Shown here in pieces: positions 1,848 to 32,263 of a stretch of 61,999 bases of DNA. The DNA comes from Promethearchaeota archaeon (lineage in GTDB: Archaea; Asgardarchaeota; Lokiarchaeia; Sigyniarchaeales; SOKP01), in NCBI GenBank assembly GCA_019058365.1, contig JAHPZE010000027.1, forward strand, positions 1-61,999, given 5' to 3'. The translations under genes and the position numbers were made by a program. Positions within the stretch are counted from its first letter, which is position 1. The number at the start of each line of letters is the position of its first letter. The notes beneath the pieces are model-generated. The model was given only the letters and a program-made list of their open reading frames with translations, did not search any database and was not told the DNA's origin.

Positions 1848-4805
1848 ATGAGTTATACATTTTCAAGGACTAAAATGATTGAAAAAATAAAATTTGGACT
1901 TTTGAGCCCAAATGAGATTCGGAAAATGAGTGCAGCAAGAATAATTACTGCTGACACTTATGACGAGGATGGACTTCCGATACCAAGTGGTCTTATGGAC
2001 CAAAGATTAGGAACTATCGAACCTGGACAACGATGTCAGACTTGTGGTAATCTCGTGAGCAATTGTATGGGGCATTTCGGACATTGTAAGAAGCATTTAG
2101 AGTCTTACGTCTAAATTGAACTGGCCCGTCCGGTAATTCACGTCGGTTACGCAAAAAAAGTCTTAAAAGTATTAAGAAGTATTTGTCCAGAATGTAGCAA
2201 GTTAATGCTCACTGAAGATGAAAAAGAGAAATTCAGACAAGAGCAATTAACACATAGAAAGATCTTTTTTGAGGGCGATGAGGATGCTGCTAAAATTGTT
2301 TTTAAAAGAGCAAGGAAGGCAAAAGTTTGCCCTCATTGTGGAGCTATTAAAAAAAAAATTATTATTGAAAAACCAACTACCTTTTATGAAGAAGAAGAAG
2401 GCAAAGGCTCACGGAGAATAACGCCTATTGAGATTTTAGAACGTCTAAAGAAAATTGGTGATGTGGATCTAAGGATCCTTGGTATTTCTCCTGAAAATGC
2501 AAGACTTGAATGGGTAGTATTTACAGTATTACCAATCCCTCCTGTATGTGCAAGGCCATCAATTACTCTAGATAGTGGTATTCGATCTGAAGATGATTTA
2601 ACACATAAGCTGGTTGATGTCATCCGAATTAACCAAAGATTGCGAGAGAATATTGATGCAGGAGCGCCTCATTTAATAGTTGAAGATCTATGGGAATTAT
2701 TACAATACCATATTACAACTTATTTTGATAATCAAGTTTCTGGTATACCTCCTGCTAGGCATCGTTCTGGTAGAGCACTTAGAACATTAACTCAGAGGTT
2801 AAAGGGTAAGGAGGGTAGATTTAGAAGTAATCTAAGTGGTAAAAGAGTTGATTTTTCTGCCCGCAGTGTTATATCACCTAATCCATATATTAGCATTAAT
2901 GATGTAGGTGTTCCAATAGAAATTGCAAAAATTTTGACAATCCCTACGAATGTTAATGATTGGAATATTGAAGAGATGAAACAAATGGTCCTAAATGGAC
3001 CTTTTAGACATCCGGGTGCGAATTACATCATACGTAATGATCGAAGAAGGATTGACTTACGATACGTAAAAAACCGAAAAATTATCGCTGATATGCTCGC
3101 ACCGGGTTTTACAATTGAACGACATTTAAATGATGGAGATTTAGTATTGTTCAATCGACAACCTTCGCTTCATAGAATGAGTATAATGGCTCATGAAGTA
3201 AAAATAATGACAGGAAGAACTTTTCGCCTAAATTTAACTGTATGCCCACCTTATAATGCGGACTTCGATGGAGATGAAATGAATTTACATGTACCCCAAA
3301 GTGAAGAAGCACGCACGGAAGCAGAATTACTTCTTAAAGTTCAAAACCATATACTTTCTCCAAGATTTGGTGGACCAATATTAGGCGGAATTCAAGATTT
3401 TATATCAAGTGTCTTTCAATTTACCAGTAAAGAATCTTTATACGATAAGAAGGACACATTAAAATTATTATATTTTGGAGATGTATATAAAAATAATCCT
3501 GATTTTAGTTTAGATCAACTTACTCCTATAATTACTGATCCAGAGCCAAAATACTCGGGAAAAGAAATTTTTAGTACATTATTTCCAGATGATCTAAATA
3601 TTAAAGTAAAATCTAAATTTTGTAAAAAATGCGAAATCTGTGAAGAGGAAAATTGTCCTTATGATGCGTATGTCGTGATTAAAAATGGTAAATTAATAAC
3701 TGGAACTGTTGATGAGAATTCTTTTGGAGCTATGCAATCAAATAGTATCTTGCAGCGCATAATTAAAGATCATGGTAATGCACTTGGAAGGCAATTTTTA
3801 GATAGTGCTACCAAAATGCTCTTATACGTTATTCGACAGAATGGAATGACAATGGGATTGGATGAAGTGTATGTGCATGGACATGCATATGAAGAAATCG
3901 AAAAAATATTAAAAGATGCAAACATCGAGTCTGAGAAATTAATTAATGCTTTCTATGAAAATGATACAACAATTCTTAGAAGAGCACCCGGACGTTCAAT
4001 GAGAGAAACATTGGAATTAAGAATCAGACAAGTATTAGCAGAAGCTAGAAAACAAGCAGAAGAAACTGCTGCAAATTTCATTGGAGATGAAGCTCATTCT
4101 GTTATTATGACTAAATCTGGAGCTCGGGGTAATATATTAAATTTAGGACAAATGTCTGCGGTTGTTGGGCAACAAGCAATTAGAGGAGAAAGGATAAATC
4201 GAGGATATAGTATGAGAACATTGCCTCATTTTAAAATTAATGATCTTTCACCTAAATCCAGAGGATTTGTATCCTCTTCTTATAGAAATGGATTAAAACC
4301 AGTGGAATTTTTCTTCCACGCAATGGGAGGAAGAGAGGGATTAGTAGACACAGCAGTTAGAACTTCTACCTCGGGATATATGCAACGTAGGTTAGTAAAT
4401 GCATTACAAGATATGGTTGTTGAAAATGATGGCACCGTCAGAAATTCGGATAAAAATATTATCCAATTCCGCTTTGGTGATGATGGTATAGATCCTATGC
4501 ATACAGATCATGGTGCTGCTGTAAATTTAGATGTTTTATTATTAAAAGCCAAAGCCTTGGATTCTAAAGAAGTACGTGAAGAAATTAAAAAAAACTTACC
4601 AAAAAAATTATCCGTATCGAAGGAAAAAGGAGTATCTAAAAAAAAACCTACTAAAACACCTACAAATAAACCGCAACCAAAGAAAAAACCAGATGATAAT
4701 GACTCAATGATACAACAATTCGAAGAAGAGACTGGTAAAAAAGCAATTTGGCGAGGGAAAGAAACCAAAGCTTATTTAGATTGGAAAGAAGAAAAATTAG
4801 GATAA
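1848..4805 (+). CDS. rpo1N: DNA-directed RNA polymerase subunit Rpo1N (A'), two exons 1848-2084 and 2115-4805 (975 aa after removing the 30-nt insert)
   Basis: FGLLSP, CQTCG..CMGHFGH|[21 protein letters not shown] catalytic motif, [13 protein letters not shown]; ORFs 1848-2114 and 2205-4805 are in the same frame. Confidence 0.97.
2085..2114 (+). other. Putative 30-nt BHB-type (archaeal tRNA-splicing-type) intron in rpo1N mRNA
   Basis: TGTAAGAAGCATTTAGAGTCTTACGTCTAA; central helix GGAC(2079-82)/GTCT(2109-12); bulges ATT(2083-85) and AAA(2113-15); intron stem GTAAGA/TCTTAC; removal gives GGA CAT|ATT GAA (G-H-I-E). Confidence 0.88.
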
Positions 4806-4836
4806 AAAAATTGTTGTATAAAGAAGGGAATTAATA

Positions 4837-6033
4837 ATGGCAAAAATAGATTCAGAATATTTAGAAGAAAAGTTAAAAGAACTAGAAGGGGATGGTATTC
4901 CCGAAGATTTAATAAATAAAATTAGAAAAAAACTTAACGAAGAGGAATTAGAAAAGGAACAACTTGAATATTTATTAAATAAAATTTATATTAATTTTAC
5001 TAATGCTCTTGTAGAAACTTCAGAACCAGTAGGTACCGTAGCAGCTCAGTCTATTGGTGAACCTGGAACCCAAATGACATTGAGAACATTCCATTATGCA
5101 GGAGTAGAGGAATTCTCTGTAACCCAAGGATTACCCAGGCTCATTGAAATAGTTGATGCTAGACGTTTCCCTAGTACCCCACAAATGACCATCTATCTTG
5201 AAAAACCCTATAATGAAAGCGAGGATAAAGCAATTAATGTTCATAATCGTATTGAACAAATACGTATAGAACAAATAACTCATGATGTCGATCTAGATTT
5301 TGTGAATTGGAATATTGTTATTAATTTAATACCAGAAATTTGTGAGAAAAAAGGAATTGAAATAAACGATATTCCTGAAATTTTAAAGCGTTATAAAAAG
5401 AAAGGAACAATAAAACGTGAAGGAACTTCTATAATTATAGATCCGGGAATAGAAGATTTACAGAGTTTACAAAAATTAAGAGAAAAGATACTTAAAAAGG
5501 TTGTAAAAGGGATTAGAGGAGTTAAGAGAGGACTATTGACTCTTTCAGATGATGGTAAAGAATGGATAATTAAAACTGAAGGTACTAACATGCAAAGTGT
5601 AATACAAATTGAAGGAGTAGATGTAACCAGAACAGTTTCAAACCATATTCACGAAGTAGAAAAATTATATGGCGTAGAAGCAGCACGTCAAATGATAATA
5701 TTGGAAGCTCAAAAAGTCTTGGAACAACAAGGATTAGATGTAGATTTAAGGCATCTCTTGATTTTATCAGATCTAATGTGTTATTCTGGATCAATTCAAT
5801 CTATTGGAAGACATGGAATATCAGGTTCAAAATCGAGTGTATTTGCTCGTGCAGCATTTGAAGTCACAGTCAATCAATTACTCGATGCTGGGCTTTACGG
5901 AGAGGAAGAGCGTTTACTTGGAATACCTGAAAATGTAATTGTAGGCCAAATTAGCCCGATAGGCTCAGGGCGTGTAGCTGTAATGTTCGATCTTGACGCT
6001 AATTTAGAAATATTAAAAAAGAAGGAAAAATAA
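4837..6033 (+). CDS. rpo1C: DNA-directed RNA polymerase subunit Rpo1C (A'')
   Basis: [39 protein letters not shown] motifs; follows rpo1N. Confidence 0.97.
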
Positions 6034-6154
6034 TATCATCAAGTGAAAACTTTTAATTAGGGTATAATAACATAAATATTCCTAAAAAAAAAAATTAAAA
6101 ATTAAAAAAGCATTATTCTTATTACTTATTATATAGATACTTATTGAAATTATC

Positions 6155-6529
6155 ATGGCAAAGGGAAAGAGTAAAACCGTCACTGAAAAAGTCGATCTAA
6201 GTAGGAAAAAAACTAAGGAGTTTGATGTTGATACTAATATCAAAGTTGCTTATAAAACAGGTAAAATAGTCTATGGTAAAAATCAAGTTCTGAAGAACAT
6301 AAAAAGGGCAAATTCTTTTAAAATGCTTATCGTGAGTAATAATTGCCCTGCAGAATTGATTAAACAATTGAATTATTATAATTCTCTTTTAAAAGATCAA
6401 ATCTTTATCTATAAATATAAGGGCTCAAGTTGGGACTTAGGTCTAGCTTGTGCTAAGCCATACATGATTTCTATTATAGGTATAATCGATTTTGGAGATT
6501 CCGCTTTGATCTCTTTAAAAACTAAATGA
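6155..6529 (+). CDS. rpl30e: 50S ribosomal protein L30e
   Basis: KTGKIVYG, NNCP, YKGSSWDLGLACAKPY; conserved position after rpo1C. Confidence 0.93.
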   Translation: MAKGKSKTVTEKVDLSRKKTKEFDVDTNIKVAYKTGKIVYGKNQVLKNIKRANSFKMLIVSNNCPAELIKQLNYYNSLLKDQIFIYKYKGSSWDLGLACAKPYMISIIGIIDFGDSALISLKTK

Positions 6530-6557
6530 TCTTAATAACGCAAAACAAGTTTTTTCT

Positions 6558-7034
6558 ATGTTAAAAAAGAATATTAAAATTGATCGGGAAGCAATGGAGC
6601 TTATTTCGCTATTTAATAACATATCTGGAGCAATTATAAAAGATTGTCTGATTTTTAAATCGCCTGAGAATAGATCCGAAATTATTATTTTTTTAGTAAA
6701 AGAAGAGGATGTAGGAAAAGCTATTGGAAAAGCGGGTGAGCATGTTAAGGATTTAAAATCAAAACTCCAAAAAAAAATAGATGTTATTGCCTTCTCTGAA
6801 AATCTTAACCAATTCATCCAAAACATATTACAAACTACAAAGAATTCTATAATGGTTCAAAATATCGAAATTAAAGAAAGTAGAAATCTAAAAAAGACCG
6901 TTATTATTACTGTAAGACCTCAAGATCGCGGAAAAGCAATTGGCAAAGAAGGCTCAATGATAAGAAAGATAAAAGAACTGGTGCTAAGGTACTTTGAAGT
7001 CGATAATGTAATTATTAATACGAAAAATATCTGA
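6558..7034 (+). CDS. nusA: Archaeal NusA-like KH-domain transcription factor
   Basis: Two KH motifs GKAIGKAG / GKAIGKEG; conserved position after L30e. Confidence 0.93.
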   Translation: MLKKNIKIDREAMELISLFNNISGAIIKDCLIFKSPENRSEIIIFLVKEEDVGKAIGKAGEHVKDLKSKLQKKIDVIAFSENLNQFIQNILQTTKNSIMVQNIEIKESRNLKKTVIITVRPQDRGKAIGKEGSMIRKIKELVLRYFEVDNVIINTKNI

Positions 7035-7100
7035 TTGTTATTACCTAAAAATTATCCTTAATAATTATTATTAATTTAATCACAAAAATTACTATTTATA

Positions 7101-8357
7101 GTGATTCATCTGTCAAAATTAACCCTTTATGATGAACAAGCTGCTAATAATCATGTTAAATCGCTAGATTTTACACGGCACGCAGCAACTGATGGTGAAA
7201 CAAAAACTATAACCTATATCCAAAAAGAACTAGAAAAAGTGAATCTTGATGCTAAAGTTGAGTCTTTTGAGTGGACTACTTCATTATATAAAATAAGGAA
7301 ATTGTTGTTTTTATGGATATTCATTTTCATTTTAAGTAGTGAGATATTATTATTGTATCCAAGTAATACATGGCTAATTCTTCCTCTTGATGGTCTCTTT
7401 TTATTAGGATTACTAGTAGTAGTCAAATATGCTTTTGATCATTCAAAGCTAATATTCATAGGTAAGAAAAGAGAATCAAAAAATGTTATAGCAACCATTC
7501 ATGCGAAAGATTTATATCCGAAAAGACCTGTTATAGTTTTTTCAGCTCATCATGATTCAGTTTCGTCTAATTTTACACACAAAATAACAAAATTATTACT
7601 TCTTTCAGCAGTATTTTTACTCCTCTCATATCTATTAATTAACTTAATCCTCGCAATTTGGTCAACAATAGCATTATTTACAGCAATTCAAATTGAAATT
7701 ATTTATTTATGGATAAGAAATATTTCCCTAATTATCGGGAGCATTCTACTTTTAGAAATATTTGTTACCTTTTTCATGAAAACAACCAATGAATCTATTG
7801 GTTCAGTTGACAATGCGTCAGGAGTTGCAATTCTATTAGAATTAGCGAAGTTAATCCAAAAAAAACCACTTGAAAAGACTGATGTACTTTTTTTATGGTG
7901 TGGAGCGGAGGAAATGGGCCTATGGGGGTCTAAACAATACTGTTCTAAACATTTCGAAGAATTAGATACTGATTATGACTTGAATAAATCATATAACATT
8001 AATATAGACATGGTGGGTACTTACATAGGTTTAATTGATGAAACTGGATTATTTAGAAAAAAAAAAATAAATAATAATCTTAATGATATCTTAAAGGCAT
8101 CAGATATACAACATAAAATCCCCTCTGAGAAATCAAAATTATCATTAGGTTCTGGAAGTGATCATTTAGTTTTTCGTGCATTTACAAAAAAAACAGAGAA
8201 AAACGGTTTCCAAGTAACTTGCTTTTTATCAAAAAAAGACGCAAAATATATACATTCTAACAAGGATATTCCTGAATTGTGCTCTGCTGAAAATCTAAAT
8301 GGATGCATAGATATTTGTTATAATGCTATAAAAAGCCTTGATCTGAGAGTAGAATAG
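7101..8357 (+). CDS. Membrane-embedded M28 family metallopeptidase
   Basis: SAHHDS, GSVDNASG, GAEEMGLWGS, NIDMVG, SDH, YIHS motifs plus TM segments; true start possibly CTG at 7110. Confidence 0.85.
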   Translation: MIHLSKLTLYDEQAANNHVKSLDFTRHAATDGETKTITYIQKELEKVNLDAKVESFEWTTSLYKIRKLLFLWIFIFILSSEILLLYPSNTWLILPLDGLFLLGLLVVVKYAFDHSKLIFIGKKRESKNVIATIHAKDLYPKRPVIVFSAHHDSVSSNFTHKITKLLLLSAVFLLLSYLLINLILAIWSTIALFTAIQIEIIYLWIRNISLIIGSILLLEIFVTFFMKTTNESIGSVDNASGVAILLELAKLIQKKPLEKTDVLFLWCGAEEMGLWGSKQYCSKHFEELDTDYDLNKSYNINIDMVGTYIGLIDETGLFRKKKINNNLNDILKASDIQHKIPSEKSKLSLGSGSDHLVFRAFTKKTEKNGFQVTCFLSKKDAKYIHSNKDIPELCSAENLNGCIDICYNAIKSLDLRVE

Positions 8358-8455
8358 GATATTCAAAAGAAGCATTTTTTCATTATATACATAAATTTTA
8401 AGTTTAAAGAAACATTTTTTCTATTACTAAAGTTCTATTAATTAATAATTATTAG

Positions 8456-8896
8456 GTGTTATCAATAGCTCCCAAAGGGTTATATGCCGCGAGAAAACTT
8501 AAAACTAATCGAAAAAAGTTTAAATGGTCCAAAACAAAATATAAAAGAAGAATACTCAAATTAAAACAAAAAGTTGACCCATTAGAAGGAAGTTGTCAAG
8601 CTCTTGGTATCGTTCTTCAAAAAGTAGGTCGAGAAAGTAAACAACCAAACTCAGCAATAAGAAAGTGCGTACGTATCCAATTGAAAAAGAATGGAAAAGG
8701 TGTGACTGCCTTCCTTCCGGGGGATGGGGCGCTTAACTTCATAGAAGAGCATGATAGAGTAATAGTTGAAGGAATTGGAGGCGCTAAAGGACGATCTATC
8801 GGAGATCTCCCTGGAGTACGTTATAGGGTCGTTAAAGTTAATGGTGTAAGTTTAGAAGCTCTTTTATCAGGAAAGAAAGAAAAGCCGTTGCGGTAA
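8456..8896 (+). CDS. rps12: 30S ribosomal protein S12 (uS12)
   Basis: [29 protein letters not shown]; start may be ATA at 8465. Confidence 0.97.
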
Positions 8897-8910
8897 AGAG
8901 GTTAAAAGTT

Positions 8911-9528
8911 ATGAGTAAGGTAAAGAGAGAAGTAAAACTATTTAATAATTGGTCTTATTCAGACATACATATAGGGGATAGAACTCTTGAAAACTATATT
9001 AATTTGAAACCAATTATCGTACCTCATTCTGCTGGCAGACATGAGCATAAAAGATTCTGGAAAACCTCAAAAGTCTCAATTATTGAACGTTTTTCCAATA
9101 GATTACTCTCTCCTGGTTTCATCGGCAGTAAGATCAGAGGTCATAAGAGTTCCTATCATTCTGGCAAGAAAGCTAAACTTCTGAAGAGTATAAAAAATGC
9201 TTTTGTTTTAATAGAATTGACCACCGAGCAAAATCCAATCCAAGTTTTAGTAGATGCGGTTTGTAATTCTGCACCTCGTGAAGAAACTACAAAGATTGCG
9301 ATGGGAGGTATTTCATACGCGTCAGCAGTAGATATAGCACCACAACGTCGAGTCGACTTGGCTATTAAGTATCTCGTTCAAGCAATTGGTGCCCGGTCAC
9401 ATGCAAATGAAAAGATGTTTGAAGAAAATGTAGCTCAAGAACTAATACTCGCAGCAAGTAACAATCAAGAATCTAGAGCTGTAAAACGCAAGGATGAAAT
9501 CGAAAGAATTGCGGTCTCAGCAAGATAA
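8911..9528 (+). CDS. rps7: 30S ribosomal protein S7 (uS7)
   Basis: PHSAGRH, NPIQVLV, APREE, VDIAPQRRVD, ERIAVSAR. Confidence 0.97.
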   Translation: MSKVKREVKLFNNWSYSDIHIGDRTLENYINLKPIIVPHSAGRHEHKRFWKTSKVSIIERFSNRLLSPGFIGSKIRGHKSSYHSGKKAKLLKSIKNAFVLIELTTEQNPIQVLVDAVCNSAPREETTKIAMGGISYASAVDIAPQRRVDLAIKYLVQAIGARSHANEKMFEENVAQELILAASNNQESRAVKRKDEIERIAVSAR

Positions 9529-10047
9529 ATATTTTTAAAATTTTTAAAAAATCACTTTTTATCCAAAAATAATCCTTTTATCATTGATTATAACCAAATT
9601 CTCCATTTTATTAGAGTTTAACATTTCTAATTTTTATATAAATTATATTTGAAAGATTTAATACATCAAAAATTTACCATTTCCTTTTAAATAATATTCA
9701 AGAACTATAGGATTATAGTGTCATGACAGTTCTATTTCTGTACAATTTGAAGCTAAACTTAATCTAGTTTAAGGAGGTTATGCAAAATAAGGACTTATAA
9801 AAAATGTGAATGGTTAATTAAAAATGAAAAAATGCAAGAAATGAGTCCAAAACATTATTATAAAGAGAGATTTAAAAAAATTGTACGTGAGATTGAAAGT
9901 AATGCCAAGAAGAAGGATTCTCATTGTCTGGACAATCTATAAAGCGGAATAATGAAATAGAGGGAATTTTGTTCAGCAAGTTAAATTATAATGAATATCA
10001 TAATAAATAACTAGTATGAATATAAAAAAAAATAGAAGTTATTGATA

Positions 10048-11550
10048 CTATCTATTTTGAATAGAATCTAAAATGGTACCAATTATCGCAATTGTTAGTG
10101 TCCCCCCAATAGAAAACATTGTTATCAAATACTCATGAGTTTGGAAAATGACTACTTGAAGAATCATCATTGTAAATGTTGTTACTAAAACTAAGCTCCA
10201 GAAACCTAAAAGTCTTGTATTAAAAGGTCTCTTTATTATATACCGAGTAATTAAAGCTCCAATCGCATACGCAAGGATGATAAAAAGAGGTATTGGTACC
10301 CAAAACTCTTGCATCCAAAAAGAAAAAAGCAATATTGAAGAGAAAACTATGAAGAAGTTGATGTAATAAAGCGCCCGTCTAAGTATGTTTTTATTTTGAT
10401 CTATTTTATACCACAGAATTCCGAATGAAATAAATATTATCCATACCGCAACTAGGTTTACGACCGCATTAAGTATTTCTGCTATATCATTTTGCGAGAA
10501 AGGGAATGTAACAAGAGTGTTTATAGCATAATGATCTCCCCAAAAGGCGTAAATCATTCCATATCCTAGTATTTGGGTAAGTAAGATATGATATGTGGAT
10601 CTGCTAATCAAAGAAATTCCTCGCGAAAGTCGTCCGTCTGGGTTCTGAGGTAAAAATTTCATTGCTAGCAAAAATAAAAATGCTGAGTATGGAACAATTA
10701 ACAAATGATAATCCCCTCTTAGAAGTGGTACACCATCAATTCTGATTCTATAGGAGAAGAACTGATGTGCTGTAATAAAAGCTAAACTTATTGGATAAAT
10801 AATCCACATAAAGAAGTTTCGATTATCATTAAGTTTATATCCAAAGGAAAACCACATTCCTAAGCCAATAGCAGGAAGATAAAATAAAACAGAGGTCATA
10901 AAAATCGTCACGATATAGCTTTCTTCATATGAGGTAATATTTCCAATCAAGAAAAACAGTGTTAACTGCAATGCTATTTCTACCACGAAACATAGAATTA
11001 ATGTTATAACTGGTTTTTTTGTAAATGCCCAATAAAGTAAAGGAAAGATTAAAATGGATTGGAATAGTAATGGAAGAAACCAATTTCCTGGGCCCCAAAA
11101 TGGTAAGAATCCTATGAACAAGAGGATGAAACCATGATCTGGATAATATTGCCCATTCCACATAGCAGTAATATCAAATCCATACATAAACAATCCTATA
11201 AATGTTGATGCCGCATACAAAACTAGGAATGGTACAATATACCGCAAAATTTTACTTTTGAAATAACTCCAAGAATACATTTCCCTTAATGTCTTTGCTT
11301 CACTTTTTTGTATTGAGCAACCCATATTAAAGCCCAATATCACTAAAAACACTGGTATTGAGATTCTCTCCCAAAGAGTGACAGCAATGTAAGATTTTAC
11401 ACTCCAAGAAACTATATGATCGAATATAACTAAAAAGATCATTGCTGCTTTTAAAAAATCCACTTGGAAATAATGCTCCCCTAATTCAACCAAAGTCTCT
11501 TTTTCAGCTTCTTCTAATACTACTTCACTAACTTGTTTTTTAGATGTCAT
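10048..11550 (-). CDS. Acyltransferase family 3 (OafA-like) polytopic membrane protein
   Basis: VDFLKAAMIFLVIFDH, IPVFLVILG, KILRYIVPF, WFL, STYHILLTQ; many TM helices. Confidence 0.75.
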   Translation of the reverse strand: MTSKKQVSEVVLEEAEKETLVELGEHYFQVDFLKAAMIFLVIFDHIVSWSVKSYIAVTLWERISIPVFLVILGFNMGCSIQKSEAKTLREMYSWSYFKSKILRYIVPFLVLYAASTFIGLFMYGFDITAMWNGQYYPDHGFILLFIGFLPFWGPGNWFLPLLFQSILIFPLLYWAFTKKPVITLILCFVVEIALQLTLFFLIGNITSYEESYIVTIFMTSVLFYLPAIGLGMWFSFGYKLNDNRNFFMWIIYPISLAFITAHQFFSYRIRIDGVPLLRGDYHLLIVPYSAFLFLLAMKFLPQNPDGRLSRGISLISRSTYHILLTQILGYGMIYAFWGDHYAINTLVTFPFSQNDIAEILNAVVNLVAVWIIFISFGILWYKIDQNKNILRRALYYINFFIVFSSILLFSFWMQEFWVPIPLFIILAYAIGALITRYIIKRPFNTRLLGFWSLVLVTTFTMMILQVVIFQTHEYLITMFSIGGTLTIAIIGTILDSIQNR

Positions 11551-11862
11551 TATTATCTGTTTATTTTTTTAAAGTTTTAAGATTTAGTTATAGCCTTTGT
11601 GAACTTTTTGAAAAATATAACGAAGTGGGAGTCCAATTTTTACAATTGAAATACAGCGTTAAGACAAGATTTAATAATAAAATTATTTTTAGATTAAAAA
11701 AGCATGGATATTAAAATAAATCTTTTAAATTCAAGTTTAATATCACCCACATATTATCCCTATTCATTGATGGATTGGAAAATTCCTAAATTTTTATATA
11801 ACTGTAAATCATATTATTTAGTTAAACAGAATTGAAGAAACAGAACAGGGTCAATAAGTAAA

Positions 11863-22658: not shown

Positions 22659-22718
22659 GTTAAAAAATTTAAACTCACAACACTTTTTTATTATATAACT
22701 CTTAAAAATTCGATATTT

Positions 22719-23384
22719 ATGGATTTGCAAAAAGAATATGAAAAACTCTATCAACATTGGCTTAAAGAGTTCCAAAATACAGATCTAACTGAATTAAGTC
22801 AAGATACTTTCAATAACTACATAAAGATTTTAAATTTTATTAATGAGCATCAAGAAAAAGAAACGGATGCCATAAAGCAGCGTATATTTGATTCCTACAA
22901 AGATAATATAAATTATTTATTTAATGATCTATTGAAGATTAGAGAAATCAAGATAATAAACTCAGCATTAGCTCTACATGAAATTTATATCGATAAGGTT
23001 ATTGAATCTGAGAAATTGCTTTATGAAAATTTGGTAAGTTCTATTAAAGGATATCAAAAAGTATTAGCTATATCACTTTTTAAAGAAGATCATGTTCCAT
23101 CAGATATCTTGATTGAACCAAAAGCACAAGCAAAATCTGTTGTTGAAGATGAACCAATATTGAAAGAGGAAAGACCTTCTATTATTCTTGATTATAAAAA
23201 TAAAGATGATCAAGAAAAAGTTAATTATACACTTATAAGGTTTTTAAGAGCCACCCCGCCTTTAGTAGGTGTTGATCTTATAAATTATGGACCTTTCGGA
23301 GAAGAAGATATTGCAAATCTTCCCCAAGAAAACGCTAAAATTCTAATAATTGAAAAATTTGCTGAAAAAATAGAACTTCCTTGA
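22719..23384 (+). CDS. gins15: GINS complex subunit (Gins15/Gins51 type)
   Basis: Helical A domain, C-terminal B domain PPLVGVDLINYGPF..DIANLP..NA; follows priS. Confidence 0.85.
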   Translation: MDLQKEYEKLYQHWLKEFQNTDLTELSQDTFNNYIKILNFINEHQEKETDAIKQRIFDSYKDNINYLFNDLLKIREIKIINSALALHEIYIDKVIESEKLLYENLVSSIKGYQKVLAISLFKEDHVPSDILIEPKAQAKSVVEDEPILKEERPSIILDYKNKDDQEKVNYTLIRFLRATPPLVGVDLINYGPFGEEDIANLPQENAKILIIEKFAEKIELP

Positions 23385-23386
23385 CT

Positions 23387-23590
23387 TTATTTAAACTTCT
23401 TATCAAAATCTTCTTTAAAATATTCTAATCGATACTTCCCATATTTATCTATTAAAGAAAACTTTGGAGGTCTTGGATTCATTAACATCCCTCCACAATA
23501 ACGACACTTTGATCCAGGATTCTGTAATCCATATTTATTACAATTTTTACATTTTTGGAGGTATTTTGTCATTGTGAATACTACTTTCAT
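23387..23590 (-). CDS. nop10: H/ACA RNP protein Nop10
   Basis: KCKNC..Y.L..CRYCGG..PRPPKFSLIDKYGKYR; follows aIF2-alpha. Confidence 0.92.
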   Translation of the reverse strand: MKVVFTMTKYLQKCKNCNKYGLQNPGSKCRYCGGMLMNPRPPKFSLIDKYGKYRLEYFKEDFDKKFK

Positions 23591-23601
23591 ATTATAAATT
23601 T

Positions 23602-24423
23602 TTAATCTCGAATAAACTCAAACGTCCCATCATTTTTTTCTGCATTGTGTTCAATAATTTCTAATGCATCAGATAAAATATTTTCTGCATCAAGATAATC
23701 TTTTGAAACTATTTCTAATCGATAAAATGGTGCTGCAATATAATTGATTGTAATATTTCTTGTTTCCTTTGGTTCTATTATTTTTAATGCTTCTATTAAA
23801 GAATCTTTAATATGTTCTATCCCGTTTTCCGAAGTAAATGAAAGTTTTATCTTACCGGATATGTTTACAGTAGAAATACTTACATTTTCACTAATGATTC
23901 TTAATAAAGCTTTCTTTGTATCCTCTGTAATTCCATTTAAGTCAGACAAAAGTTCCTTTCCATTTTCTTTAAGGTTTTCAATAGCTTCTTGATATGTCTC
24001 GAAACGATCTAAAACTGGAAAACCAATTAATTCATATGCTTCCTCCAGAGTCATATTAATACCTTCTGTTTCTGTTAGGAATTGTAGTAAATTTTCAAAC
24101 TTTAAGGCGTATTTCCATTCCTTCATTCGAATCTCTTTTTGAGCTGAATTGACTCTTCGCAAAGATAAGTCCACATGCCCTTTATCTGCATCTACTCTTA
24201 ATACTCGCAGAACCACTCTTTGACCAATGCGAACAAAATTACGTATATTTTTAATCCACCGAGAGCTTATTTCAGAAATATGGATCATACCTCTAGCACA
24301 CTCCTCAGAATCCAAACCCTCGAAGTCAATTAAATCAACGTAAACGTATTGGTTTTCTACCTCAGTTACTTTAGCAATTACAAATTTACCTTCCTTTGGG
24401 AACTTTGTTTTACTTTTTACCAT
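23602..24423 (-). CDS. eif2a: Translation initiation factor aIF2 alpha subunit
   Basis: S1 domain GMIHISEISSRWIKNIR, VLRVDADKGHVDLSLRRV, YIAAPFYR. Confidence 0.96.
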   Translation of the reverse strand: MVKSKTKFPKEGKFVIAKVTEVENQYVYVDLIDFEGLDSEECARGMIHISEISSRWIKNIRNFVRIGQRVVLRVLRVDADKGHVDLSLRRVNSAQKEIRMKEWKYALKFENLLQFLTETEGINMTLEEAYELIGFPVLDRFETYQEAIENLKENGKELLSDLNGITEDTKKALLRIISENVSISTVNISGKIKLSFTSENGIEHIKDSLIEALKIIEPKETRNITINYIAAPFYRLEIVSKDYLDAENILSDALEIIEHNAEKNDGTFEFIRD

Positions 24424-24545
24424 TATTTTGACAAAACTCTAGTTAATTATTTAATTTTTATGAATTCTTAATTTTATTTAACGAACTATAATTTTTTATT
24501 TTTATTATCTTTCAAGAAAAAAAGTATATAAAAAGTGATTAACAA

Positions 24546-24992
24546 ATTCCTAATTGGTTTATTCATAATAAGTGGGCTAAAAAAGCGGGAATTAAAAAAA
24601 ATATTTCAGATTTAGTGAATAGAGCCGTTGATTATGGATTTAATTGGGTCTATTATAAACAAGACGAAATAGCTTTTGAAGTTAACAATGATAATATAAT
24701 TTTTCGTCAACTAAAGTATTTTTATGAGAAAGATAAAAATAAAAAAGGCTATATTAAAGCGCTTTATCTACATCATCTTTTAGATTTCTTTAAGGAAACA
24801 CATGTTAATATTTATGATCTCAATTTAGTTTTTGAAAAATTTCTACAAAATAAAATTATACTTGAAATTTCTGATGCTGAAGGTAAGAAAATAAACTTCC
24901 AAGAAGATCTGCAAGAGATATTCAAACTCTTAAAAGATAATAAAAAAGAATTGTATGAGGATTTAAAAGGAGAATATTTGGTTGATTTATAA
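24546..24992 (+). CDS. Conserved-looking hypothetical protein (P-x-W-x-x-H-x-K-W-A ... LHHLLD), apparent ATT start
   Basis: Track ORF 24615-24992 extends in frame to ATT 24546 (PNWFIHNKWAKKAGIKKNISDLVNRAVD); an in-frame TAA lies at 24540. Confidence 0.65.
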   Translation: MPNWFIHNKWAKKAGIKKNISDLVNRAVDYGFNWVYYKQDEIAFEVNNDNIIFRQLKYFYEKDKNKKGYIKALYLHHLLDFFKETHVNIYDLNLVFEKFLQNKIILEISDAEGKKINFQEDLQEIFKLLKDNKKELYEDLKGEYLVDL

Positions 24993-25019
24993 AATGTTAA
25001 AATCATAAAATAATAGATT

Positions 25020-26885
25020 CTAAAGATATTGTGAAACCCAATCTATATCCAATTCTTCTAATTTTGATTTTGTTGGGATTCCATCATCATCCCAACCCAT
25101 CATTTTATAATAATTAATTATCGCATTTTTAAGTTCATCTGGTTTAATTGCTGTTTCTACGAGGGCTCCTGAAGTATGAGGTTTGAAAAATCTTTCAGGT
25201 AACCAATCATCCTTTTTTGTAAGCGCTTCTCTCATATTGAAAGCTCTTGCCATCGTTGTAATCCTCTCTCCTACTTTCATTAATTCCCAAGTTGAAGTAT
25301 GCCATCCAGTCACAGCTCTTACAATTTCGGGTATATCCACATAATCCCACGGTACGAAATAGCACATTAATAAAGCATTCAACGAGTTCTGCCAATTAGT
25401 ATAATAAACCAATGCTCGAACCTTCTTTATTCCTAAATCATCGATCTTGAGAGGCTCTAAAATCCCAATAGCACTATGAGAAGCCATCGCTCTTTCACTA
25501 GCAATTGATGTATCATGCAAATTTGCCATATGTTCTGCTCCTGTAGGTGAGATTGTATAACCAACCCCTAATCCCTGCTTTAAGCGAGGTTCATGCATTG
25601 GAATCTCTTGGCCTTTAACATGCATAGCATACTTATCTGCTCCATTTTTTATCTTTTCCGCAGCTCTTTTAACACCTTCTGCTAAAATATCCCCTAAACC
25701 TTCACGTTTCGCAATCATCTCAACCATCTTAACTACGGCTTCAGCGTTTCCAAAATTTAATGCTATTCCATCTGTATCCTCATCTGTTAAGATTTCATTT
25801 TCATAACATTCCATCGCAAACCCAATTGAAACACCAGTAGATATGACATCTATTGAATATTTATTACAAAGTTCATTTGCTTTACACACAGCTCTTAAAT
25901 CATCTACACCACAATTTGAACCAAACGCACCAATTGACTCATATTCCGGACCCCCATATATTGGATCGACATTCCAAGGTTCTCCAATTTCCACAATCTT
26001 TTTACACCGAATTGAACAAGCATAACAAGCTTCCATTTTAAGTCCAATTTCTTCTTTCATAATACCGGGATCTAAAACCTTTGCACCCTTAAAATCTCCA
26101 TCTCTAAAATTTCGTGTTGGAAGATTTCCAGATGAAGCAAATTGTTCCATTATACCATATCCTGTACCATACTTAAAATAACCCGAAAAAGATTTATAAG
26201 CAACTTCATTAAATTCTTTTATTTTCGCTCTTAATTTCTCTTTATTCTTAACAGCAAATTTTTTATGCCCTCTAACAGCAATAGCTTTTAAATTCTTAGA
26301 ACCCATTACAGCACCCATCCCAGTACGACCAGCAGCATTTCTTAAATCATTTATAATACAAGCATAACGTACTAAGTGTTCTCCTCCAGGTCCAATCTGA
26401 GCTACACGGATTAATTTATCTCCCAGCTCTTTTTTAATAACTGCCTCCGTTTCGCCTGTAATTTTGCCCCAAAGATGACTCGCATCCTTTATTTCTACCT
26501 TACCATCATTTATCCACAGGTAAACAGGATTTTTAGCCTTTCCCTCTATTATTATTGCATCAAATCCTGCATGCTTTAACTCAGCACCCCAATACCCTCC
26601 AACTTCAGCTTCACCAAAACCCCCCGTTAAAGGTGATTTAGCACCAACACTGTTTCTCCCCGTTCCTGGTATCGCAAACCCAGTTAATGAACCTGCGGCA
26701 AATATTAACTTGTTTTCTGGACCTAATGGGTCAATCCTTGCTTTTAATTCCTTTAAGAGGTAATAGGCTACAAACCCCTCACCTCCAATGTATCGACGGT
26801 AGAAAATTTCTTCAGGATTTTCTATTAAGATTTTCCCATTTGTTAAATCTACTCTAAGAATATTTCCAGTATATCCATTTACCAT
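25020..26885 (-). CDS. aor: Tungsten-containing aldehyde:ferredoxin oxidoreductase family
   Basis: GYTGNILRVDLT, KSPLTG, GRTGMGAVMGSKNLKAI, C-x2-C-x3-C, GPEYE, DDWLPERF. Confidence 0.93.
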   Translation of the reverse strand: MVNGYTGNILRVDLTNGKILIENPEEIFYRRYIGGEGFVAYYLLKELKARIDPLGPENKLIFAAGSLTGFAIPGTGRNSVGAKSPLTGGFGEAEVGGYWGAELKHAGFDAIIIEGKAKNPVYLWINDGKVEIKDASHLWGKITGETEAVIKKELGDKLIRVAQIGPGGEHLVRYACIINDLRNAAGRTGMGAVMGSKNLKAIAVRGHKKFAVKNKEKLRAKIKEFNEVAYKSFSGYFKYGTGYGIMEQFASSGNLPTRNFRDGDFKGAKVLDPGIMKEEIGLKMEACYACSIRCKKIVEIGEPWNVDPIYGGPEYESIGAFGSNCGVDDLRAVCKANELCNKYSIDVISTGVSIGFAMECYENEILTDEDTDGIALNFGNAEAVVKMVEMIAKREGLGDILAEGVKRAAEKIKNGADKYAMHVKGQEIPMHEPRLKQGLGVGYTISPTGAEHMANLHDTSIASERAMASHSAIGILEPLKIDDLGIKKVRALVYYTNWQNSLNALLMCYFVPWDYVDIPEIVRAVTGWHTSTWELMKVGERITTMARAFNMREALTKKDDWLPERFFKPHTSGALVETAIKPDELKNAIINYYKMMGWDDDGIPTKSKLEELDIDWVSQYL

Positions 26886-27014
26886 ATAAATCCCCTATTT
26901 TTTAATTAATTTTTATTGTTATTTAGTTAAATTTCATGTTATTTATATTTCTTATCTGAATCAAATCTCTGTTTTCTATATAATGTTTAAAATGATAGTG
27001 GGTAATTTTACAGC

Positions 27015-27057
27015 TATAGAGAAAAAAAATATAAACTCAATAAGCTTTATAATTAAT
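27015..27057 (+). repeat. ~40-bp diverged direct repeat, copy 1 (copy 2 at 29121-29160)
   Basis: TATAG..AAAAAATATAAACTCAAtAAgcTTTAtAATTAAT vs TATAGtAAAAAATATAAACTCAAcAAcaTTTAcAATTAAT. Confidence 0.6.
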
Positions 27058-27272
27058 TTTGGTCTAAATCTGCAAATAAATTATCAAATTAATTAATTAG
27101 GTTTACATTCTCTTTTAAAATATCATAATGAATTTTGCTAATTTATAGTTTGAACTTTTGAACTTCACTCGAAGTCCAAATTTAAATCGAACAAATACAA
27201 ATTGAATTTTTTATTGGATATTTAGTTTTGATTTAATATCTAAATTCAATCTTTTGGATATTAATACTATAA

Positions 27273-28247
27273 ATGCAAACTAAGCGAAAGTTTAAAAGTT
27301 GTTTTATCAATACTTTTTTTGAAATCAAGATGAAAAAACTCATAAAATCAATTACATTATTTCTCATCTTAATTTTTCCCAGTCTAAATTTAATTATGCC
27401 TCAAAACTCTATTGCAAATCCAATTTATATTCCTGATGTGACATTTTCTGGCGGATTGTTACCTAAAGAAAATTATTCTCTTAGTTTAATATCTGCGAAT
27501 GTAGAAATCGTTGCAGATACCTCAGATTTGAAATTTCTTGGTGAAATACACTTTAATGGGAATTACACTATTTTTAACCCAGAAAATGATATTAATATAA
27601 CAATAGGCGCTCCATTCAATTTTTATCCTATAGATAATTGTACTGTTTTATTAAATGGTACAAATATTCCATTTACCCTAAAGAATGATGACGAACTTTT
27701 CGATGAAGACAATTGTGAAATTTTACAACAATATATGGTAAATAGAAATGAATTACCATATTTTAGGATATTCTGGGTTTTATGTAATGTATCAATTCCT
27801 AAAAATTCGTCAATAAGGTTAGAATATAAGTTTAATACCCCTAGACCTAAATCCACAGAGCTGGTAAAATACTTTTATATTATTTATGATGTTGGTACGG
27901 CACGTCTATGGAATGGAAATATAACAGAGGTGGTTGAAATAAAAGTGCACAGAAATTTTCCTACTTCTATTTTTAATGAAGATTTATGCAATACTACTAA
28001 TATTTCGAATGAAATATGTTTTCGATGGGAATGGTATAAAGAGCGAATTGAAGTTAATTATGTTGGACTTCATTATTATGTGGATTTATCGAATGAATAT
28101 GAGTATTTGTACAATTCTATTAAATTCACTCTTATTTTAGTCGTCAGCATAGTAGGTATTACTTTATTGATAATAAAGAGAAATTATAACATAAAAAATA
28201 AAAAAAAGTTATTTGGAAATAATAGAAATGAAGGATCACGAAATTGA
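27273..28247 (+). CDS. Exported protein with signal peptide and C-terminal TM anchor
   Basis: MKKLIK + hydrophobic stretch (probable true start at the internal ATG), YDVGTARLWNGNI, many N-glycosylation sequons, terminal TM + basic tail. Confidence 0.65.
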   Translation: MQTKRKFKSCFINTFFEIKMKKLIKSITLFLILIFPSLNLIMPQNSIANPIYIPDVTFSGGLLPKENYSLSLISANVEIVADTSDLKFLGEIHFNGNYTIFNPENDINITIGAPFNFYPIDNCTVLLNGTNIPFTLKNDDELFDEDNCEILQQYMVNRNELPYFRIFWVLCNVSIPKNSSIRLEYKFNTPRPKSTELVKYFYIIYDVGTARLWNGNITEVVEIKVHRNFPTSIFNEDLCNTTNISNEICFRWEWYKERIEVNYVGLHYYVDLSNEYEYLYNSIKFTLILVVSIVGITLLIIKRNYNIKNKKKLFGNNRNEGSRN

Positions 28248-28872
28248 ACCTGTGTATTGCCCAAGGTGCAGAAAAGGATTAGTGTCAATAGGATCGGTTT
28301 GTTCAAATTGTGGTTTTAAATTATCATATGAGGGCATCAAGGAGCTACACCTATATAATATTAAAAGTGCAAGAAAACTATCCACAGAAGAGTTAAAAAA
28401 AAAAATTATGAGATCAGGTTATTTAATTTCGGGGTTTACCTTACCTTTCCTTATAGGGCTCACTAGTATATGGAACTTTAATATACTCTATTTTCTTATG
28501 TATATTACACCATGGTCCTTTCTTTTTTTTCCTGGAGGATTTATAACATTTATCTTTGCTATTCTAGTTAATATCATTGGATTAAGATTAATATTTTTTT
28601 CAATTAGACCTAAATCTAAAGGATATTTTTTAATAATTTTTGGTTACTTTCTATTTACCATTTTTTTTTTAATACAAACCTCAATCAACTTCGACTCCGT
28701 TAGGAACGTTCTATTGTATTTAGTCTTTATAGATATTCCAATTCTAACTATGATAATATTCGGTATTTATAATATTTATAATTTTGAGAATAAAACTATA
28801 CCCGATATAATATGTTTCATACCAGTATTATTTTCTAACATTTTCCCTTACATTTTTTATCTTTTTCCTTAA
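28228..28872 (+). CDS. Zinc-ribbon membrane protein
   Basis: YCPRCR..CSNCG followed by ~5 TM helices; ATG at 28228 in frame with track ORF 28213. Confidence 0.65.
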   Translation: MKDHEIEPVYCPRCRKGLVSIGSVCSNCGFKLSYEGIKELHLYNIKSARKLSTEELKKKIMRSGYLISGFTLPFLIGLTSIWNFNILYFLMYITPWSFLFFPGGFITFIFAILVNIIGLRLIFFSIRPKSKGYFLIIFGYFLFTIFFLIQTSINFDSVRNVLLYLVFIDIPILTMIIFGIYNIYNFENKTIPDIICFIPVLFSNIFPYIFYLFP

Positions 28873-29120
28873 TTATCGTATATTAAATATTTGCTGAGAT
28901 ATAGTATAAAATATTGAGCTTCACAGCAAGTTGGAATTTATATTGATTTAATGTAGATTTTATGTATCTTTTTTTTTTCTCAATTAAATATTACACTCTA
29001 ATGATTATATTCAATTAATTATTCAGCGAACGTATTAGAATACTTAACTAAGAATGATCAATCTAAAGATCTATATTTATTCATGGTAATACTTATTAAA
29101 ACTCGATAATTTGGCTGAAA

Positions 29121-29160
29121 TATAGTAAAAAATATAAACTCAACAACATTTACAATTAAT
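29121..29160 (+). repeat. ~40-bp diverged direct repeat, copy 2
   Basis: Matches 27015-27057. Confidence 0.6.
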
Positions 29161-29215
29161 CAGGGTTTTGAGTTTCATTCTTTTTAGAAAACTTCCGATT
29201 AACTACTTCGACACT

Positions 29216-30709
29216 ATGTTTTTTGAGCCGAATAGTGAGCTTGATAACCCTAAGGAGAGCTTAGATCGATTACATTATGATGAAGAATTACACTCAACGG
29301 CAAGAGACTTTTTACGAGGGAAGAAATATAAAGGGTTCGATATAACTGTCGATGATTGGGTTAACTGGGAAGTACTAGCTTTACTTAAGGAGAAGTGGGA
29401 AAGCGGTGAAAAGATGAGTCAGCTAGAAAGAGTAATTAACGATGTTGCGGTGTTCTACATGGGTGGAAAAGATAAGGTCTCTGTCGCTGAGAAGGAAGAT
29501 GTATTGACAACCGAACAATTTATCGATTATCTTCTGGAAGAAATAAAGAAATTTGAACCAGATTTTAGGGAGCTTTCATTAACTCAACTAAGAATTGAGG
29601 TTAGTAAAATTATAAAAGATTCTAGTTATTTCTTAAAGCATGTTGTAGCTCGACTTAAGAATTCAAATGATATCAAGACTTATAATCCGAAATATACATT
29701 TTCAGAGGAGCTTCTAGATTTGTTTGGAGATAGATTGGAAGAGAAATATGGCGAAAGAGCAAAGACTTGTCTCAATATAATTGAAAAATATAGAGCTTCT
29801 AATGAGTTAAAGGTATATTCGAAGCAGCAATATCATTACCATAATCCAAATCTTGATAGTCGATTTTTTAGTAGATTAGACACAGAAGATAAAGGTTATT
29901 GGTTTGGGTTTATGCTATCTGATGGATCAATCACTCTTGGAAATGATGATATAGTTCGCTACCAGATAGCAATCGAATTGTCTATTAAAGATAAGGATCA
30001 GTTAGTGAGATTTTGTCAAACTGTAGGAATAGACCCCACGAAAATTGGTAAGAGAACACGAGAAATAGATGGGACGGAATATGAAGTGGCTTATATAGAA
30101 TTTACTTGTAAAGAAATGACTCAAGATTTGAGAGCCCTTGGATATTTTGAATTTAAAGAGGGTGGCAAGCTCCCTTCCTTTGAAGGTTTTACTTCTGACA
30201 TTCAAAGAGCTATTGTGTTAGGTGTTTTTGATGGTGATGGTATTCAAGGAACAAGTAAAATATCTACCACAAATGTACAATTTTTACACCAATTAAAAGA
30301 ATATTATGATATCAAATATGAAGTGAGAAAGAAAATTGATATCGATGCTGATTATATTAATAACAATCCTATAAGACCCACTAAGAATCTTTACAGTTTA
30401 TCCCTTGGAGCGACCTTATTTAACAGCCTTCTTAATAATTACAGGAATAGTATGAATAGAAAAAGAATCATATTAGATGAATATCGAGATAAGTATGATA
30501 ATTTAAAAGATTTAATTGGTAGTAAAGACCATTTACAAAACATGGTTAATAATTTCCCTAGGAGTTGGTTAGCTCGACACTTTAATTGTGATGTTAGAAC
30601 CTTAAATAAACTTTGCACTGAATGGGACATTGAACTACAAAAAAATGGTTTTTGGACATTTGATAAATTAGAAGAAGCTCGTGAGAAATTCGACAAATTA
30701 TTCAAATAA
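29216..30709 (+). CDS. Free-standing LAGLIDADG homing-endonuclease-like protein with N-terminal helical region and possible C-terminal HTH
   Basis: Two LAGLIDADG-like helices GYWFGFMLSDGSI and RAIVLGVFDGDG; IELSIKDKDQL; NVQFLHQLK; terminal RSWLARHFNCDVRTL; ATG 29216 in frame with track ORF 29168; no intein splice motifs seen. Confidence 0.8.
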   Translation: MFFEPNSELDNPKESLDRLHYDEELHSTARDFLRGKKYKGFDITVDDWVNWEVLALLKEKWESGEKMSQLERVINDVAVFYMGGKDKVSVAEKEDVLTTEQFIDYLLEEIKKFEPDFRELSLTQLRIEVSKIIKDSSYFLKHVVARLKNSNDIKTYNPKYTFSEELLDLFGDRLEEKYGERAKTCLNIIEKYRASNELKVYSKQQYHYHNPNLDSRFFSRLDTEDKGYWFGFMLSDGSITLGNDDIVRYQIAIELSIKDKDQLVRFCQTVGIDPTKIGKRTREIDGTEYEVAYIEFTCKEMTQDLRALGYFEFKEGGKLPSFEGFTSDIQRAIVLGVFDGDGIQGTSKISTTNVQFLHQLKEYYDIKYEVRKKIDIDADYINNNPIRPTKNLYSLSLGATLFNSLLNNYRNSMNRKRIILDEYRDKYDNLKDLIGSKDHLQNMVNNFPRSWLARHFNCDVRTLNKLCTEWDIELQKNGFWTFDKLEEAREKFDKLFK

Positions 30710-30926
30710 TTTTTTTTATTTCGATTTATTTTTCTAGATTTTTTATGGAAAATTCTCCTAATTTCTACATTTTAGATTTTCCTAACTTACCTTGAATTAA
30801 AAGAAGTATGAAATTTCCAAAAGATTATAGTAAAAATTATAAATTCATAGACATTTACAAATAACATCTATTAAAAATTATTTAAAATTATTTTAGATAA
30901 AAATTACAATTTATGAATGATTTATA

Positions 30927-32263
30927 ATGAGTTCGAAACTAAAAGAACATTTGAATTTAGTGATAATAGGGCACATCGATCATGGAAAGATTTAGTTTAA
31001 ATAAAACTCAATCCCATAGAATCAACCATGATGGGCGCTATGCTTATTGAAACAGGCGCAGTTACAGATAGAGAAGCTCGTGAATTAGACAAACTCGCAA
31101 AAGAATACGATAGAGATTCTTGGTCTTATGCCTTTGTTTTTGACAGATTAAAAGAGGAGAGACAGCGTGGCATCACAATTGACTTAGCATTTAGAAAATT
31201 TGAGACTAAAACAAAGTATTTCACTATCATTGATGCACCTGGCCATGCTGACTTCGTAAAAAATATGATTACTGGTGCAAGCCAAGCTGATGCTGCTATC
31301 TTAGTAGTATCTGGGAAGAAAGGTGAAATGGAAGTTGGGATCGCAGCTAATGGACAAACTCGTGAACATGCTTATTTAGCTCAAACATTAGGTGTAAAAC
31401 AACTAGTCGTTGCTATCAATAAAGCAGATGTTTATGAGTATTCTGAGGCAAGATTTAATGAATGTAAGGAAGCAGTTGGAGATCTTCTAAAAAACATAGG
31501 ATTTAAGCTCAAGGATGTACCCTTTGTCCCTACTTCTGGCATGCAAATGGAAAATCTTTCAAAGAAAAGCGATAAAATGCCATGGTATAATGGTCCAACC
31601 TTGATTGAAGCTATTGATCAATTTGTCCTTCCTGAAAAACCAACTGGTAAACCTTTGAGACTACCCATCCAAGATTGCTATAAAATTAAGGGAACTGGTG
31701 TAGTCCCCGTTGGTAGAGTAGAGACTGGAATATTAAAGAAAGGAGATAAAATTATTATTATGCCCACTGGATTTCAAGGTGAAATCCGAAGTATCGAAAT
31801 GCATCATGAAGAAATTCCACAAGCTATCCCTGGAGATAACGTAGGATTTAGTATTAGGGGCATTACATTGGCAGATGCAAGTAGAGGAGATTGTTTAGGA
31901 CATCCTAGTGATCCACCAACTGTAGTTACTCCAAAAGGAAAATGGACGGGACAGATTATTGTTATTTGGCATCCTACAGCAATAGCCCAAGGTTACACTC
32001 CGGTAATTCATGCACATACAGCACAAGTAGCTGCAAAGTTTACGAGTTTAGTTAAAAAATTAGATCAGAAAACTGGGGCTGTAATTGAAGACTCACCTAA
32101 GTTTCTTAAAAAGAATGAAGCTGCCATCGTAGAGCTATCTCCGATTAAGAAAATGTGTCTTGAAAAGTATGAAGTAATTCCAGAAATGGGCCGATTCGCA
32201 GTACGCGATATGGGTCGTACCGTATGTGTAGGGATTGTGAAGGACATAGTTACAGGCGCATAA
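30927..32263 (+). CDS. tuf: Elongation factor 1-alpha, two exons 30927-30987 and 31020-32263 (434 aa after removing the 32-nt insert)
   Basis: Exon 1 MSSKLKEHLNLVIIGHIDHG(K); exon 2 STMMG..ERQRGITID, DAPGHADF, NKAD, GRFAVRDMGRTV. Confidence 0.97.
30988..31019 (+). other. Putative 32-nt BHB-type intron in EF-1alpha mRNA
   Basis: AGATTTAGTTTAAATAAAACTCAATCCCATAG; central helix ATGG(30982-85)/CCAT(31014-17); bulges AAA(30986-88) and AGA(31018-20); intron stem GATT/AATC + AGTTT/AAACT; removal gives GGA A|AA TCA ACC (G-K-S-T). Confidence 0.88.

Follow-up and report, generated by a model that had tools for sequence, protein, structure and literature searches.

The stretch analysed here (the window; 61,999 nucleotides, contig JAHPZE010000027.1) belongs to a Promethearchaeota archaeon of the class Lokiarchaeia and is contig C52 of G000, a 4.74-Mb metagenome-assembled genome with 6.6% contamination; the neighbours of its EF-1alpha are Promethearchaeia/Lokiarchaeia. 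It carries the genes for RpoA' (rpo1N) and EF-1alpha, both on the forward strand and each interrupted by a stop-containing insert of about 30 nt. The rpo1N gene spans 1848-4805. Its first exon (1848-2084, 79 codons, PRK08566 positions 4-77) ends in the zinc-site motif GHFGH and is followed by a 30-nt phase 0 insert with TAA at its end (2085-2114) and by the second exon (2115-4805, positions 78-876). The two exons thus match consecutive profile positions, and removal of 2085-2114 is the sole in-frame deletion that brings GHFGH directly before IEL and restores the zinc site. EF-1alpha extends from an ATG at 30927 to a stop ending at 32263, with a first exon of 20 codons plus 1 nt that ends in the P-loop sequence GHIDHG (30927-30987), a frameshifting 32-nt phase 1 insert inside GHIDHGK (30988-31019) and a second exon matching PRK12317 positions 23-422 (31020-32263). 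Three slides of this insert restore GHIDHGKST; its boundaries were placed at 30988-31019 because only this slide has a 4-bp central helix, as the bulge-helix-bulge (BHB) rule requires.

Both inserts fold similarly. In rpo1N, the central helix pairs 2079-2082 with 2109-2112, the intron helix pairs 2086-2091 with 2103-2108, and the bulges occupy 2083-2085 and 2113-2115. In EF-1alpha, the central helix pairs 30982-30985 with 31014-31017, the intron helix 30989-30992 with 31010-31013, and an inner stem 30994-30998 with 31004-31008. In each case the cuts fall after the second bulge nucleotide and excise the insert exactly, as a sequence-only reading of this DNA had proposed. That reading had called the cut rule canonical: the rule holds, but the strict hBHBh' form does not, with the outer exon-exon helix next to the bulge pairing at 2/4 positions in rpo1N and 0/4 in EF-1alpha. 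Because this helix is imperfect, both inserts are classed as relaxed HBh' motifs. In G000 coding DNA, a 4-bp central helix is expected by chance at 2.6% of registers, and with a contiguous intron helix of ≥6 bp (as in rpo1N) or ≥4 bp (as in EF-1alpha) the expectation drops to 1.2e-4 and 7.3e-4 per register, respectively.

The inserts are real. A separate Logan assembly (SRR14802574), possibly of the same sample, was 100% identical over the EF-1alpha insert, and a search of G000 revealed no further intact copy of either gene. At just 30-32 nt, and with no Rfam match in the window, the inserts showed no group I or group II catalytic core. Database entries hold only fragments of these proteins, namely a 411-aa EF-1alpha (open reading frame (ORF) from 31028) and an 866-aa RpoA'.

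To place the inserts in context, all 161 genomes of the class were searched for both genes, anomalous loci were fetched, and intron sites were located by homology rather than by shape (G-numbers denote relatives' genomes, L-numbers individual fetched loci or contigs, and coding sequence (cds) positions are counted within the gene). Within the family of the window, the rpo1N intron at cds 237 was present in 11 of 127 genomes from four genera, including G000, and the EF-1alpha intron at cds 61 in 10 of 124 genomes, again including G000, and in 11 metagenome contigs. Only G000 and G159 had both. The sister genome G005, with 95.6% DNA identity to G000 in rpo1N, lacked the rpo1N intron. Additional rpo1N introns were detected at cds 241 (35, 50 and 85 nt) and about cds 127, and additional EF-1alpha introns at cds 29, 36, 48, 54, 294 and 1259. 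The phenomenon extends beyond the family: in G041 (L274; family f5, another order), EF-1alpha contained two 32-nt BHB inserts, at cds 840 and 1252. Nearly all rpo1N and EF-1alpha sites had the 4-bp helix at the cut that restores the protein; the rpo1N site at cds ~127 had 3/4 pairs.

Pairing was maintained by compensatory changes. In eight rpo1N introns, 95% of cells were paired, compared with 31-44% in slid controls, and none of 500 shuffles paired as well; two-sided changes occurred in 8 of 13 pairs, one of them an exon-intron pair at a synonymous glycine position. In EF-1alpha introns, the central helix was unchanged in 8/8, the intron stem covaried, and pairing reached 85% versus 25-49% when slid. 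Because related sequences can beat shuffles without any structure, more reliance is placed here on the slid controls and on the register test. For both genes, compensatory changes preserved the intron-side helix (h'), as expected of EndA substrates, and the A at intron position -2 and the covarying exon-intron helix also agree with EndA geometry.

In two genomes, G085 (L252) and G104 (L253), rpo1N is split at cds 237 and again at cds 241, which leaves a 4-nt micro-exon between the two introns. The central helix of the second intron had 3/4 pairs before removal of the first intron and 4/4 after it, suggesting ordered splicing. The cds 241 introns of G022 (L023), G100 (L251) and G071 (L255), of 35, 50 and 85 nt, were homologous and had a terminal hairpin in common; the longer ones carried additional internal hairpins and may be nested. 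Separately, the EF-1alpha cds 48 intron of G117 (L261) lay in an 11-nt context, GGACAT^ATTGA, identical to that of the window rpo1N intron (2079-2119) in an unrelated gene.

For a motif-free census, 1.22 Mb of G000 was aligned with portions of three congeners. It yielded five clean ORF-breaking inserts of 30-32 nt in G000, in rpo1N, EF-1alpha, mevalonate kinase, AMP phosphorylase and a JAMM protease; each of the five has a 4-bp central helix. This helix was present in all six ORF-breaking inserts of 30-32 nt assigned, by the automatic test or by inspection, to G000 and purA, whereas the BHB test was passed by 1 of about 73 harmless in-frame indels. One 30-nt insert in G023 had 3/4 central pairs, and the other ORF-breaking events (14-19, 48 and 94-187 nt) failed the test. 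Ab initio scans for BHB plus frame had no power against frame-shifted nulls and showed just a slight excess after gene filtering; for that reason, a candidate from these scans was kept only if homology or a restored motif backed it. Further intron genes of G000 were lsrF and an acyl-CoA dehydratase activase, each with two exons that match consecutive positions of a profile; carB, RNase HII and a B12-binding protein, in which the second exon picks up where the first stops; acd, acetoacetyl-CoA synthetase and a radA paralog; and uL11, with three introns. One candidate (C24:97263) was dropped for absent profile support. A possible further intron is a 32-nt BHB-like segment at C33:20661-20692 (L292), upstream of an FAD-binding (GlcD-like) domain.

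G000 therefore has at least 16 introns in 14 genes, with a genome total estimated at 12-25, and relatives add more than 15 further sites. The wider class of protein-gene introns that the sequence-only reading had suggested from two cases is supported, in G000 and in its relatives, whereas confinement to core informational genes is not, most affected G000 genes being metabolic. No sequence sharing beyond chance was found among the G000 introns, and copies elsewhere in G000 did not exceed the shuffled level; a copy-paste intron family was rejected on this ground. In size (28-33 nt in the genus) and in their ends, the tRNA introns here match the mRNA inserts. As regards tRNA genes themselves, ARAGORN reported only 30 in G000, many with odd intron calls, and genome comparisons show tRNA introns outside the anticodon loop in this genome.

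G000 encodes RtcB and two EndA paralogs, the latter on contigs C26 (~34.7 kb) and C12 (~101.6 kb). The alpha paralog has the Tyr/His/Lys triad, is closest to the alpha subunit of A. pernix, and contains a loop aligned with the Crenarchaea-specific loop (CSL) of that enzyme together with a lysine linked to relaxed specificity; the second paralog, a beta subunit, lacks the His. Enzymes of this kind have a broad or relaxed specificity (PMC12397907, PMC2724299). By sequence, the G000 EndA thus appears to be of the relaxed-specificity, heterotetramer type. Because EndA and RtcB are widespread, their presence is permissive and not proof of splicing. No transcript-derived protein matching a spliced product was found. 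Two short gene-sized JGI contigs (L275, L276) were rejected as G000 cDNA, being only 92.6% identical to G000, and L279 was discarded as a false pattern match. Taken together, structure, covariation and enzyme presence indicate that the inserts are very probably ORF-less archaeal BHB introns, cut by EndA and ligated by RtcB, much as had been proposed from the two window genes.

The sequence-only reading left out the gene that adjoins EF-1alpha and that best explains the pattern. Directly upstream, on the forward strand, lies a free-standing ORF at 29216-30709 (497 aa from ATG; 513 aa from the TTG at 29168), which ends about 280 bp before the EF-1alpha intron and sits within neither an intron nor an intein. 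It contains two LAGLIDADG motifs (29897-29929 and 30212-30241) with intact acidic residues (aspartates). Its Pfam match to LAGLIDADG_3 is weak (E 0.0018), 10 of 10 Atlas clusters are LAGLIDADG, and its AF2 model, with an alpha-beta fold, matches I-SceI, bI3, PI-PfuI and I-DmoI. By motifs and modelled fold it is a LAGLIDADG homing endonuclease, presumably capable of DNA cleavage.

Occurrence of this gene follows that of the intron. The comparison covered distinct EF-1alpha loci for which 1 kb or more of upstream sequence was available. A homolog or remnant lies ahead of 12 of the 17 that carry the site-61 intron and of none of the 36 that lack it (Fisher 2.3e-8); kin among these loci are not independent, but the association spans three enzyme lineages that are only about 40% identical. 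At EF-1alpha, a free-standing endonuclease thus adjoins, and is co-inherited with, an ORF-less intron. Copies of the gene were intact (G000, G005, G145), truncated (G001, G119, G143) or reduced to remnants (G116, G147). The endonuclease family was found in 50 of 134 genomes of the window's family vs 1 of 26 outside it, and its members cluster by target gene in the tree. Three single-contig genomes of another family, f2, gave no more than a weak match to it, and the two gene regions examined in them held no insert. Homologs also flank introns in the aIF2gamma P-loop (G114, G130), in the same register as in EF-1alpha, in a GH38 mannosidase motif (G002, G005, G123) and at rpo1N cds ~127 (G090). 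Of the 15 intron loci considered in G000, 3 have a LAGLIDADG ORF no more than about 1 kb away (P about 9e-5, post hoc).

Between G000 and its sister G005, cds positions 0-300 of rpo1N are 14% diverged as opposed to 3.1% over the rest, the top ratio among 253 genome pairs, and over the first 150 nt it is the G000 copy that deviates. This region (1848-2150, forward strand) is a probable recombination (co-conversion) tract over the rpo1N intron site, and a local divergence tract was also observed at the EF-1alpha intron site. The pattern would fit import of an intron-bearing tract, although another pair shows a weaker tract as well.

We infer that these are near-neutral introns, spliced by EndA and RtcB and spread by collaborative homing, an explanation to which, as a whole, we assign a probability of about 0.74. 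A heterotetramer-type EndA would cleave each bulge of the pre-mRNA behind its second nucleotide, and RtcB would join the exons, giving full-length RpoA' and EF-1alpha. The introns would be near-neutral passengers, tolerated because EndA is already occupied with many tRNA introns. The free-standing LAGLIDADG enzyme just upstream would cut alleles that lack the intron, at the conserved motif or close to it, repair would copy endonuclease, exon 1 and intron as a unit between lineages, and the intron would probably shield the new allele by splitting the endonuclease target. For EF-1alpha, it appears quite probable that the free-standing enzyme drives DNA homing and that the intron protects the allele. 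Homing elements are known to persist in conserved motifs because drift cannot alter the target there and an inexact deletion would be lethal (PMC2814812). The endonuclease would later decay and be lost, leaving orphan introns such as that in the window rpo1N; for this gene, we consider such a loss an even chance.

Several observations weigh against this explanation. In local folds, the pair probabilities of the central helix are only about 0.5. The spliced EF-1alpha junction was not found in JGI metagenome contigs, which are mostly DNA, so that this negative is weak. Five EF-1alpha intron loci have no endonuclease upstream, and no endonuclease of this family was present beside any of the rpo1N-237 introns checked; ORFs upstream of the latter did not match the G090 endonuclease, other nuclease families not having been scanned. 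Two homologs in G024 (L178, L181) lie upstream of intact aIF5B and L7Ae genes. A sister pair chosen blind to introns (G015/G020) shows rpo1N 5' divergence as well, with a ratio of 2.9. Finally, homing leaves the first origin of new introns unaccounted for, and no copies were found elsewhere in G000.

The G024 loci, together with homologs beside tRNA genes in G046, would also suit a different mechanism, in which splicing is the same, the endonuclease attacks the intergenic slot that it occupies or some other site (intronless homing), and the intron hitch-hikes in the co-conversion tract without conferring immunity. Free-standing endonucleases of T4 co-convert hundreds of bases (PMC2988022). On the other hand, the endonuclease stood beside none of the 36 intron-less EF-1alpha alleles, and aIF2gamma was hit at the same P-loop register with a homolog again adjoining. 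This mechanism is therefore unlikely. With regard to the homologs themselves, the G024 copy by aIF5B has an internal stop, and those in G046 (L330, L331) adjoin tRNA-Ser and tRNA-Val genes.

In contrast to the passenger role inferred above, the sequence-only reading had speculated that the introns are retained for a global switch, with synthesis of RNA polymerase and EF-1alpha dependent on EndA and RtcB in the manner of HAC1/XBP1. Both genes are indeed essential, and unspliced messages would yield no full-length protein. However, each intron occurs in just 8-9% of family genomes and both together in only two (G000 and G159), positions and sequences vary, the sister G005 is without the rpo1N intron, the G000 cases are mostly metabolic, and the intron-rich tRNAs require EndA and RtcB regardless. 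A regulatory role of this kind is improbable. HAC1 and XBP1 contain a non-spliceosomal mRNA intron that is cut by IRE1 at stem-loops under stress control and joined by a tRNA ligase (RTCB in animals). The likeness holds for the shared ligase and for nothing beyond it: the site is conserved there, whereas here the geometry is that of BHB and EndA and the occurrence is patchy.

That ribosomes hop over the insert while the RNA stays uncut, as in T4 gene 60 or yeast mitochondrial byp elements, is very unlikely. Those elements are stop-containing hairpins of similar size, but take-off and landing codons do not match here (CAT/TAA in rpo1N; AAG/GAA or GGA/ATA in EF-1alpha), and the covarying exon-intron helix and the A at -2 fit EndA instead. 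Assembly error or pseudogenes have a negligible probability: although G000 is a metagenome-assembled genome with some contamination, these single-copy essential genes are otherwise intact, the second assembly has an identical insert, and an artefact is excluded because the inserts are conserved in relatives, with compensatory changes among homologous inserts in four genera.

Archaeal rRNA BHB introns carry internal LAGLIDADG ORFs such as I-DmoI. They share with the present introns BHB splicing and LAGLIDADG homing, and I-DmoI is among the fold matches reported above; however, the endonuclease there is inside an rRNA intron, and here it is outside an mRNA intron. Among mRNAs, a close parallel is the intron that Crenarchaeota carry in their cbf5 pre-mRNA (Watanabe 2002; Yokobori 2009, PMC2738675), which is likewise a short ORF-less BHB intron in a coding sequence, with heteromeric EndA and lineage-specific gain and loss. 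It concerns one gene and one ancient site, whereas the present introns affect at least 14 genes in a genome, occupy many polymorphic sites, delimit micro-exons, reach into core genes (RNA polymerase, EF-1alpha, uL11) and have an adjoining endonuclease. The HVO_1309 BHB intron of Haloferax volcanii also lies in an EndA-processed mRNA, but it is located in the 5'-UTR and leaves the reading frame unbroken (PMC7714728). In the literature searched, in which subscription journals were thinly covered, cbf5 and the Haloferax 5'-UTR were the only archaeal mRNA BHB introns, and cbf5 the only one within a coding sequence. The tRNA introns of Asgard archaea and Thermoproteales are similar in size, ends, repeated gains and BHB boundaries; their description covers tRNA genes only, does not mention mRNA and found no general route of arrival (bioRxiv 10.64898/2026.10.13.758758). 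Collaborative or trans homing in phages (F-CphI with the psbA intron; T4 mobE) also involves a free-standing endonuclease that mobilises a neighbouring ORF-less intron at a conserved site, but with a self-splicing group I ribozyme in a phage, as opposed to a 30-nt protein-spliced BHB intron and a LAGLIDADG enzyme in a cellular chromosome (PMC2988022, PMC2814812). The components are thus known; their combination and scale were not found in the literature searched.

We lean towards a broader view, in which this Lokiarchaeia family splices one to two dozen mRNAs per genome with the tRNA machinery, including multi-intron genes with 4-nt micro-exons, and the class is mobile through a radiation of free-standing LAGLIDADG enzymes that retarget paralogous motifs, such as the P-loops of EF-1alpha and aIF2gamma. 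If so, it would represent a route of intron proliferation in a prokaryote near eukaryotes and might explain the arrival of tRNA introns in Asgard archaea. A lineage among the nearest relatives of eukaryotes seems to splice the messages for RNA polymerase, EF-1alpha, uL11 and many enzymes, which implies that intron-rich mRNAs can accumulate without a spliceosome and offers a testable mobility route; the finding does not show the ancestry of spliceosomal introns. In practice, core phylogenomic markers of these genomes come out truncated or split after automatic gene calling.

Other genes of the window were also inspected. The aIF5B (55969-57774) and EF-2 (59669-61921) genes are intact, P-loop motif included, in keeping with the earlier view that insertion is gene-specific; the site is nevertheless less gene-specific than that view held, since in two relatives an intron breaks aIF2gamma at these P-loop codons. 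The match of the window aIF5B to the long PRK14845 IF-2 model begins at residue 25, just past GHIDHGK. If the extra length of this model reflects a known intein, the intein site would be 2 nt from the EF-1alpha intron register. An ORF at 7101-8357, rejected as a nuclease, is an M28 peptidase-like membrane protein gene located between nusA and rps12 in the RNA polymerase/ribosomal cluster.

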